A DNA stretch of 8,139 nt from a virus (Duplodnaviria; Heunggongvirae; Uroviricota; Caudoviricetes), in IMG/VR virus record IMGVR_UViG_2534682295_000017; one strand, 5' to 3'. This document shows, piece after piece, positions 5,180 to 5,914 of the stretch. The position numbers and the translations under genes were made by a program. Positions within the stretch are counted from its first letter, which is position 1; every line of letters starts with the position of its first letter. The notes under the pieces are model-generated. The model ran no database searches. It was not told the origin of the DNA and saw only the letters and a list, made by a program, of their open reading frames with translations.

Positions 5180-5914
5180 ATGGAGACTGTTTTTGACGCA
5201 CTGAAAGCGATGGGAAAAGCCACGTCGGTATAGCTGGCTGCGCGACTTGATATCAGTCGTGAAGAAGTACTGAACGAGCTGTGGGAACTGAAAAAGGCTG
5301 GCTTCGTTGATAAAAGCGTATACACCTGGCGTGTGGCTGATAACAACGTTCAGCAGGAACAGCCAGCGCCAGAAGAAACCACCACGGCAACAGAAGCGAA
5401 AATCTCAGAGTGCGATTTAACCGCGACGATTGAACAACGCGGACCACAAACGGCGGATGAACTGGCTACGCTGTTCGGTACAACATCCCGCAAAGTTGCT
5501 TCAACGCTGGCAATGGCAATCAGCAAAGGTCGTCTGATTCGCGTAAACCAGAACGGTAAAATTCGTTACTGCATACCAGGTGATAATTTACCAGCAGAGC
5601 CGAAAGTTGAATCGGTAGCGGAAACCGATGGTAAAGCCTTTCCTCAGCCAGCCGGTGTTGCGTTACCGGTACAGAAAGATGCAACACAGGAAGATATTAA
5701 AACAGAAACTGTGGCGGACATTGTGCAGTCGCTGCCATCGTTTACTGCAACGCGAGAAGATGATTTGATTTTGCCATCGCTGCATATGGCAAATCGCGAA
5801 CTGCGTAGGGCGAAGAATCATGTCCAGAAGTGGGAGCGAGTCTGCGCCGCGCTGCGGGAGCTGAACAAGCACCGGGATATGGTTGCCGGGATTTGTCGGA
5901 AGTCCGGGCAATGA
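5180..5914 (+). pseudogene. conserved prophage protein downstream of P, interrupted by an in-frame amber codon at codon 18
   Basis: ATG at 5180 with GGGAGG 6 nt upstream. The frame reads METVFDALKAMGKATSV, then TAG at 5231-5233, then continues in the same frame ([38 protein letters not shown]...) to the stop at 5912-5914. The track ORF 5333..5914 is the GTG-restart portion. Confidence 0.55.

Follow-up and report, generated by a model that had tools for sequence, protein, structure and literature searches.

The DNA analysed here (8,139 nucleotides, referred to below as the window) comes from E. coli O157:H7, where it forms the early region of a defective lambdoid prophage, Sp9 (PPompW), integrated at ompW. 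Its sequence is essentially that found in many E. coli O157:H7 chromosomes, EDL933 and Sakai among them, and the Sakai record labels the region 'prophage Sp9; lambda-like phage'. PPompW is the name used for the ompW-integrated prophage in passages of Nakamura et al. 2021 (PMC8112680). The Sp9 and PPompW prophages are described as defective in passages of Asadulghani et al. 2009 (PMC2669165) and of PMC8112680, which mention a repressor without its peptidase domain and damaged recombination and head genes; according to the latter passages, multiple genes are inactivated in PPompW prophages. The best-scoring match to the window was strain Z1323HEC0494. When compared with Sakai, the window has T-runs that are 1 nt shorter at 1828 and 8111 and one substitution (G349 versus A), which reflect either variation between strains or assembly errors at homopolymers.

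The gene order was taken from the annotation of matching records, and sok from Rfam. It begins with a DUF1482 gene, dicB, ydfC, the repressor and cro, a ydaT-like gene, a DnaT-like (O-type) replication gene, and the gene for a lambda P-type replication protein P, a helicase loader (4685-5146, plus strand; RefSeq annotation of the identical sequence). The TGA stop codon of the latter (5144-5146) lies 33 nt upstream of the start of a ydaW-like DUF1627 gene (5180-5914, plus strand), which is the subject of this analysis. The next reading frame, a 54-aa ORF that matches PHROG 30109 and ends in TAG (5911-6075, plus strand), has an ATG that overlaps the stop codon of the ydaW-like gene as ATGA (5911-5914), and because of this overlap the ORF is probably translationally coupled to the ydaW-like gene. 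Between the 54-aa ORF and paa/adfO lies a fimbrial pseudogene with a frameshift and an internal stop (6080-6613). The order ends with a hok/sok type I toxin-antitoxin locus (7721-7870 and 7868-8023, plus strand), in which the sok RNA was matched by Rfam RF01794 with 103.9 bits and hokD is annotated beside it. Rfam scans of the window and of the corresponding O55:H7 locus gave sok alone, and nothing at the amber codon described below.

Other lesions and length differences were observed in the same module. The fimbrial pseudogene is annotated as a pseudogene in O55:H7 and O145 too, and its lesion is therefore older than the premature stop codon in the ydaW-like gene. Strain TR01 has an extra frameshift in the ydaT-like gene (locus L001, 3731-4281) and strain 493/89 an extra frameshift in the DnaT-like gene (locus L011, 1-1001), both genes being intact in the window; these strain-specific frameshifts suggest that decay of the Sp9 early region is still going on in different lineages. 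At approximately 803 of the window, between dicB and the ORF at 940-1173, O55:H7 DEC5A is 85 bases longer, the additional stretch being flanked by the short repeat TTTCGCG, and from the sequence the O157 lineage appears to have undergone a small deletion. Rfam found no family (e.g. DicF) at this segment in either the O157 or the O55:H7 version.

Reading frame and annotated starts of the ydaW-like gene

The native start of the ydaW-like gene, read directly from the sequence, is ATG 5180-5182. It is preceded by the Shine-Dalgarno sequence GGGAGG (5168-5173, plus strand) with a 6-nt spacer, and the predicted energy of the duplex with the anti-Shine-Dalgarno sequence is -10.3 kcal/mol. Codons 1-17 (5180-5230, plus strand) are translated as METVFDALKAMGKATSV, and codon 18 is a premature amber TAG (5231-5233, plus strand; E18*), which differs from the ancestral GAG by a G-to-T transversion at 5231. 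Past the TAG, the same frame is open for the remaining 226 sense codons up to TGA 5912-5914 (5234-5914, plus strand). A sequence-only reading made earlier had noted a well-placed ATG, an amber codon at position 18 and an open frame beyond it, and our rereading and translation agreed with it on all three points.

We also examined the other in-frame codons at which translation could begin. The CTG at 5234 has a predicted anti-Shine-Dalgarno energy of -3.0 kcal/mol, and the GTG at codon 52 (5333-5335, plus strand), 100 nt downstream of the TAG, has no Shine-Dalgarno sequence and an energy of -0.9 kcal/mol. Among the other in-frame candidate starts up to codon 132, the best energy was only -5.0 kcal/mol. 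A promoter and terminator scan of 4600-7000 gave counts that did not exceed those of shuffled sequence, and nothing informative near 5231.

The public annotations of O157:H7 place the start of the gene after the stop codon. PGAP puts it at CTG 5234, the first codon past the stop, and annotates a 'DUF1627 domain-containing protein' of 226 aa (WP_077744273.1); its coding sequence begins at 5234 in the window and is found at 5835-6515 of locus L001 (strain TR01) and at 5235-5915 of locus L014. In Sakai, the gene is annotated as ECs_5720, 193 aa, from GTG 5333. We regard both starts as ORF-maximising choices that hide a pseudogene. Literature searches under ECs_5720, Z2050, Z2051 and WP_077744273 returned irrelevant matches only, a search for literature on nonsense mutations in O55:H7 versus O157:H7 found none, and the E18amber lesion was not found in the searched passages of PMC2669165 and PMC8112680.

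Protein family, predicted fold and codon 18 in homologues

Profile searches were run on the joined frame with the stop replaced. The results showed a match of residues 84-236 to Pfam DUF1627 (PF07789) with 308.8 bits against a cut-off of 28.1 (E=7.8e-93), and an end-to-end match of residues 1-242 to PHROG 630 (E=6.7e-123). The position of the gene directly after replication protein P has parallels in six phage homologues, where the gene comes after ydaV, a DnaC-like gene or a replication protein.

The AlphaFold2 model of the protein had a mean pLDDT of 62.6, with values of approximately 80 in the folded parts, and a pTM of 0.27. It predicts a winged-helix module at residues 1-51 (helix 4-11, strand 13-15, helix 16-23, helix 27-40, strand 49-51), a low-confidence linker, a second winged-helix module at residues 77-131, a low-confidence stretch at residues 135-197 (disordered region), and a long C-terminal helix at residues 199-242. 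In this model, codons 1-17 make up helix 1 and the first strand of the N-terminal winged helix, and Glu18 is at the start of the second helix. The Pfam families HTH_20, TrmB and HTH_Crp_2 matched the N-terminus below their curated cut-offs (HTH_20 with 24.6 bits versus 27), and PF12840 is precomputed for many homologues. The PDB matches listed by Foldseek were overwhelmingly winged-helix proteins (MarR, ArsR, FeoC, the tandem-winged-helix ScpB, Z-alpha), with E values of at least 2.7e-3. That the N-terminus is winged-helix-like, as had been suggested from the sequence, is thus a reasonable, if weakly supported, prediction, in line with the AlphaFold2 topology and the Foldseek matches and accompanied by sub-threshold Pfam matches. 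The assignment of a specific function from the structure was dropped, since the model is of moderate confidence and the winged-helix matches are generic and have E values in the above range. PMC9308461 includes YdaW in its list of predicted transcription factors of unknown function, and in a screen a K-12 ydaW fragment scored as blocking the retron-Sen2 toxin RcaT (bioRxiv 10.1101/2020.06.22.160242).

To compare codon 18 in homologous prophages, we searched phage records by tblastn and obtained 24 records, all covering the query from residue 1, of which eight were read. All eight (47-99.6% identity) have kept the 17 N-terminal codons and have GAA or GAG (Glu) at codon 18. A protein search gave 2724 homologues, and the best 120 cluster representatives were examined. 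The N-terminus is full-length in 117 of these 120, and every one of the 117 has Glu18. The annotated start is the same Met in 114 of the 117, the other three having an extension further upstream. Residues 1-51 are almost invariant in the full-length homologues, and codons 1-17 nearly invariant. The results are in agreement with the earlier view that the 17 upstream codons and the downstream frame form one gene, as the upstream part is retained in all 117. Homologues without the 17 codons were looked for, and there were none among the full-length members of the best 120 or among the eight phage homologues.

The other three of the 120 representatives are two partial sequences and protein P0099, which begins 'MAARLD...'. 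The contig that encodes P0099 (GCA_051684065.1, contig ACAAVC010000223.1; locus L015, 1148-1897) belongs to a mosaic prophage and has the same TAG, preceded by an identical 5' flank. At its 3' end the gene, called at 231 aa, has diverged, and it is followed by a DUF977 gene instead of the small ORF and paa. We considered whether the stop had recurred independently in P0099, but this was ruled out, as the identical 5' flank means that it is the same allele and not a second event. Judging from the mosaic sequence, the TAG allele appears to have moved between prophages by recombination.

Origin and distribution of the stop codon

We compared the window with close relatives that lack the stop. Over 3081 bp (window 3691-6771), O55:H7 DEC5A differs from the window at a single position, 5231, where it has G and the window T. 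O55:H7 DEC5B differs at 5231 and at one further position, and PPompW_EH2246 (LC567836.1) differs across the gene at 5231 alone. Codon 18 is GAG in O55:H7 DEC5A, in O145 and in PPompW_EH2246, and in the O55:H7 and O145 records the gene is annotated without interruption from the ATG that corresponds to 5180, as a 244-aa protein (WP_000450692.1). When all 8.1 kb of the window are compared, O55:H7 DEC5A shows approximately 11 substitutions and a few indels, so that the TAG is one of about a dozen drift differences from O55:H7.

The frequency of the two alleles was determined by counting exact matches of an 81-base query centred on codon 18 in complete genomes. The TAG version was found in approximately 298 and the GAG version in approximately 295 complete genomes, where up to five records in each search may be partial alignments. 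The serotypes of the carriers were read from evenly spread samples of the ranked matches. All sampled TAG carriers were of O157:H7 type, including Sakai, EDL933, the sorbitol-fermenting German O157 strain 493/89 and the atypical strain PV15-279; one mosaic prophage without a given serotype (that of P0099, above) shares the same TAG. The GAG carriers comprised O55:H7, O145, O111:H8, porcine strains and others for which no serotype is given, and no GAG carrier among the sampled matches was labelled O157:H7. Rare exceptions, such as an O157:H7 strain with GAG or a strain outside O157 with TAG, may exist among the other matches.

The branching order of O157 is that of the established stepwise model of O157 evolution. 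As the TAG is common to O157:H7 and the early-branching strain 493/89, it would date to the base of the O157 clone: the distribution of the alleles places the G-to-T change after the split from O55:H7 and before the divergence of the sorbitol-fermenting O157 and O157:H7 branches. The sequence-only reading had offered a very recent nonsense mutation as one explanation. The nonsense mutation itself was borne out by the change of GAG to TAG as the sole difference in 3081 bp, but 'very recent' was wrong, because the allele is common to the approximately 298 genomes, 493/89 included.

We conclude, with a probability of roughly 0.88, that the ydaW-like gene of Sp9 carries a true nonsense mutation, GAG (Glu18) to TAG, which has been passed on vertically. 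As a pseudogene, it has an in-frame stop where close orthologues have a sense codon and is otherwise collinear with them, and the lesion is seen in independent sequences, namely the approximately 298 genomes that include Sakai and EDL933. Ribosomes would start at the strong ATG 5180 and be released after a 17-residue peptide, and the remaining 226 codons would be largely untranslated. Given the stop and the lack of a restart site with a Shine-Dalgarno sequence, we infer that the full-length protein is lost or present at a trace readthrough level. The expression of the downstream 54-aa ORF may also fall, due to lost translational coupling or polarity. The mutation looks like neutral decay in a prophage that already carries other pseudogenes, and nothing suggests that selection maintains the E18amber stop. 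Thus, the amber codon is a case of ordinary prophage decay and not of recoding.

Alternative explanations and related genes

The possibility exists that ribosomes restart after the stop and produce an N-terminally truncated protein from CTG 5234 (226 aa) or GTG 5333 (193 aa). Such a product would keep the DUF1627 region but miss the first winged helix partly or wholly (the GTG 5333 product would lack the whole module), and its function might be retained or changed. Terminating ribosomes can restart near a stop codon, as in translational coupling, and CTG 5234 directly abuts the stop; both sites are used in public annotations, the Pfam DUF1627 match (residues 84-236) is wholly downstream of both, and the frame after the TAG is undamaged. 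However, neither site has a Shine-Dalgarno sequence (-3.0 and -0.9 kcal/mol, versus -10.3 kcal/mol for ATG 5180), CTG initiates translation very poorly in E. coli, and GTG 5333 is 100 nt downstream of the TAG. Neither position is the start of any full-length homologue among the best 120, the truncated entries among them being only partial sequences or the carrier of the same TAG, and a start right after an in-frame stop is a typical mark of an annotation pipeline that maximises ORF length. The undamaged downstream frame carries no weight, because the whole 3-kb region has changed by one base since O55:H7; apart from the stop, the frame is that of the intact allele, and as a sequence it would fit a dead or a weakly expressed gene alike. 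We therefore consider a restart unlikely. As for reinitiation at GTG 5333, which had been put forward before, it amounts to the choice made in the Sakai annotation and has the energy and the distance from the stop against it.

It is also conceivable, although we find it very improbable, that E18amber is a true nonsense mutation that was not neutral, in that selection in the O157 ancestor favoured a lost or N-terminally truncated protein, or in that polarity alters expression in the region of the downstream small ORF and paa. In view of the RcaT screen, such selection could have acted on how Sp9 replication or a host defence system is controlled. In a related scenario, a restarted protein that lacks the first winged helix would serve as an altered regulator.

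Readthrough of the amber codon would yield the full-length protein, either with the help of a suppressor (a supE-like tRNA encoded by the host or by another resident prophage) or by way of a programmed leaky stop. The amber is followed by C (5231-5234), UAG followed by C is usually counted as a relatively leaky context in E. coli, and the frame after the TAG is intact. Basal readthrough of UAG-C is possible in principle, but it would be low. Glu is found at codon 18 in every homologue examined (117 of 117 full-length and eight of eight phage homologues), and the TAG is thus not a programmed signal; it goes back to a single derived SNP within one clone. The 8.1-kb window contains no tRNA gene, and the adjacent ORF (5911-6075) itself terminates at TAG, the other genes in the window having TAA or TGA stops. 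Furthermore, readthrough would insert another residue at the position of the invariant Glu18. The proposal that the gene is expressed only in amber-suppressor backgrounds has thus nothing in its favour here, since the stop is not conserved, the window has no tRNA and the neighbouring ORF ends in TAG, and we regard readthrough as most unlikely.

A sequencing or assembly error in the window, to which the two 1-nt T-run differences from Sakai near 1828 and 8111 lend some colour by suggesting that the source assembly may contain homopolymer errors, is excluded for practical purposes, as the TAG is a substitution and not a homopolymer indel and occurs in approximately 298 complete genomes that were sequenced independently, among them the reference strains Sakai and EDL933. 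The chance that the upstream ATG segment lies outside the gene and that the true start is downstream of the TAG, as in both public O157:H7 annotations, is equally negligible: all 117 full-length homologues include the equivalent Met and have nearly invariant residues 1-17, the PHROG 630 alignment begins at residue 1, the O55:H7 and O145 records annotate the 244-aa form, and the strong Shine-Dalgarno sequence belongs to ATG 5180.

The nonsense mutation in the ydaW-like gene can be compared with known systems. Among the closest is WP_000450692.1 of the Sp9-like (PPompW) prophages of O55:H7 and O145, where the prophage context and the gene are identical bar one base, the difference being GAG (Glu) at codon 18 and an uninterrupted frame of 244 aa. 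YdaW of the Rac prophage of E. coli K-12 belongs to the same family (DUF1627, PF07789; PHROG 630), whose members have the same place directly after the replication or helicase-loader gene of lambdoid prophages, and the ydaW-like gene is 64-86% identical to the Rac versions. The K-12 copy of ydaW is presumably also regarded as a pseudogene in the K-12 annotation. The lesion here is, however, an early amber (E18*) rather than a C-terminal truncation, and the small ORF, the fimbrial pseudogene and paa are found downstream where Rac has lygF. YdaW is likewise a predicted DNA-binding protein of unknown function (PMC9308461).

Classical amber mutants show suppressor-dependent expression, and internal restarts occur in nonsense mutants of lacI and T4 rIIB. 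The Sp9 gene resembles the classical mutants in having an early amber followed by an intact frame, which could in principle be rescued by a supE-type suppressor or by reinitiation. Unlike them, it is of natural origin in a wild lineage without a known suppressor, and unlike the lacI and T4 rIIB cases it has no restart site with a ribosome-binding sequence. The amber is the same kind of lesion as the gene decay described for the defective prophages of O157:H7 Sakai in passages of PMC2669165 and PMC8112680, and in current annotations it is masked by alternative starts.

The biological importance of the mutation is small, as it adds one more inactivated gene, of unknown function, to a prophage known as defective. 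WP_077744273.1 is shown as intact in hundreds of O157:H7 genomes, and analyses of pangenomes or protein families would be misled by the pseudogene masked in this way. The G-to-T transversion at 5231 cleanly separates O157:H7, including 493/89, from O55:H7, O145 and the other carriers, and in the genomes sampled it behaves as a lineage-defining SNP.
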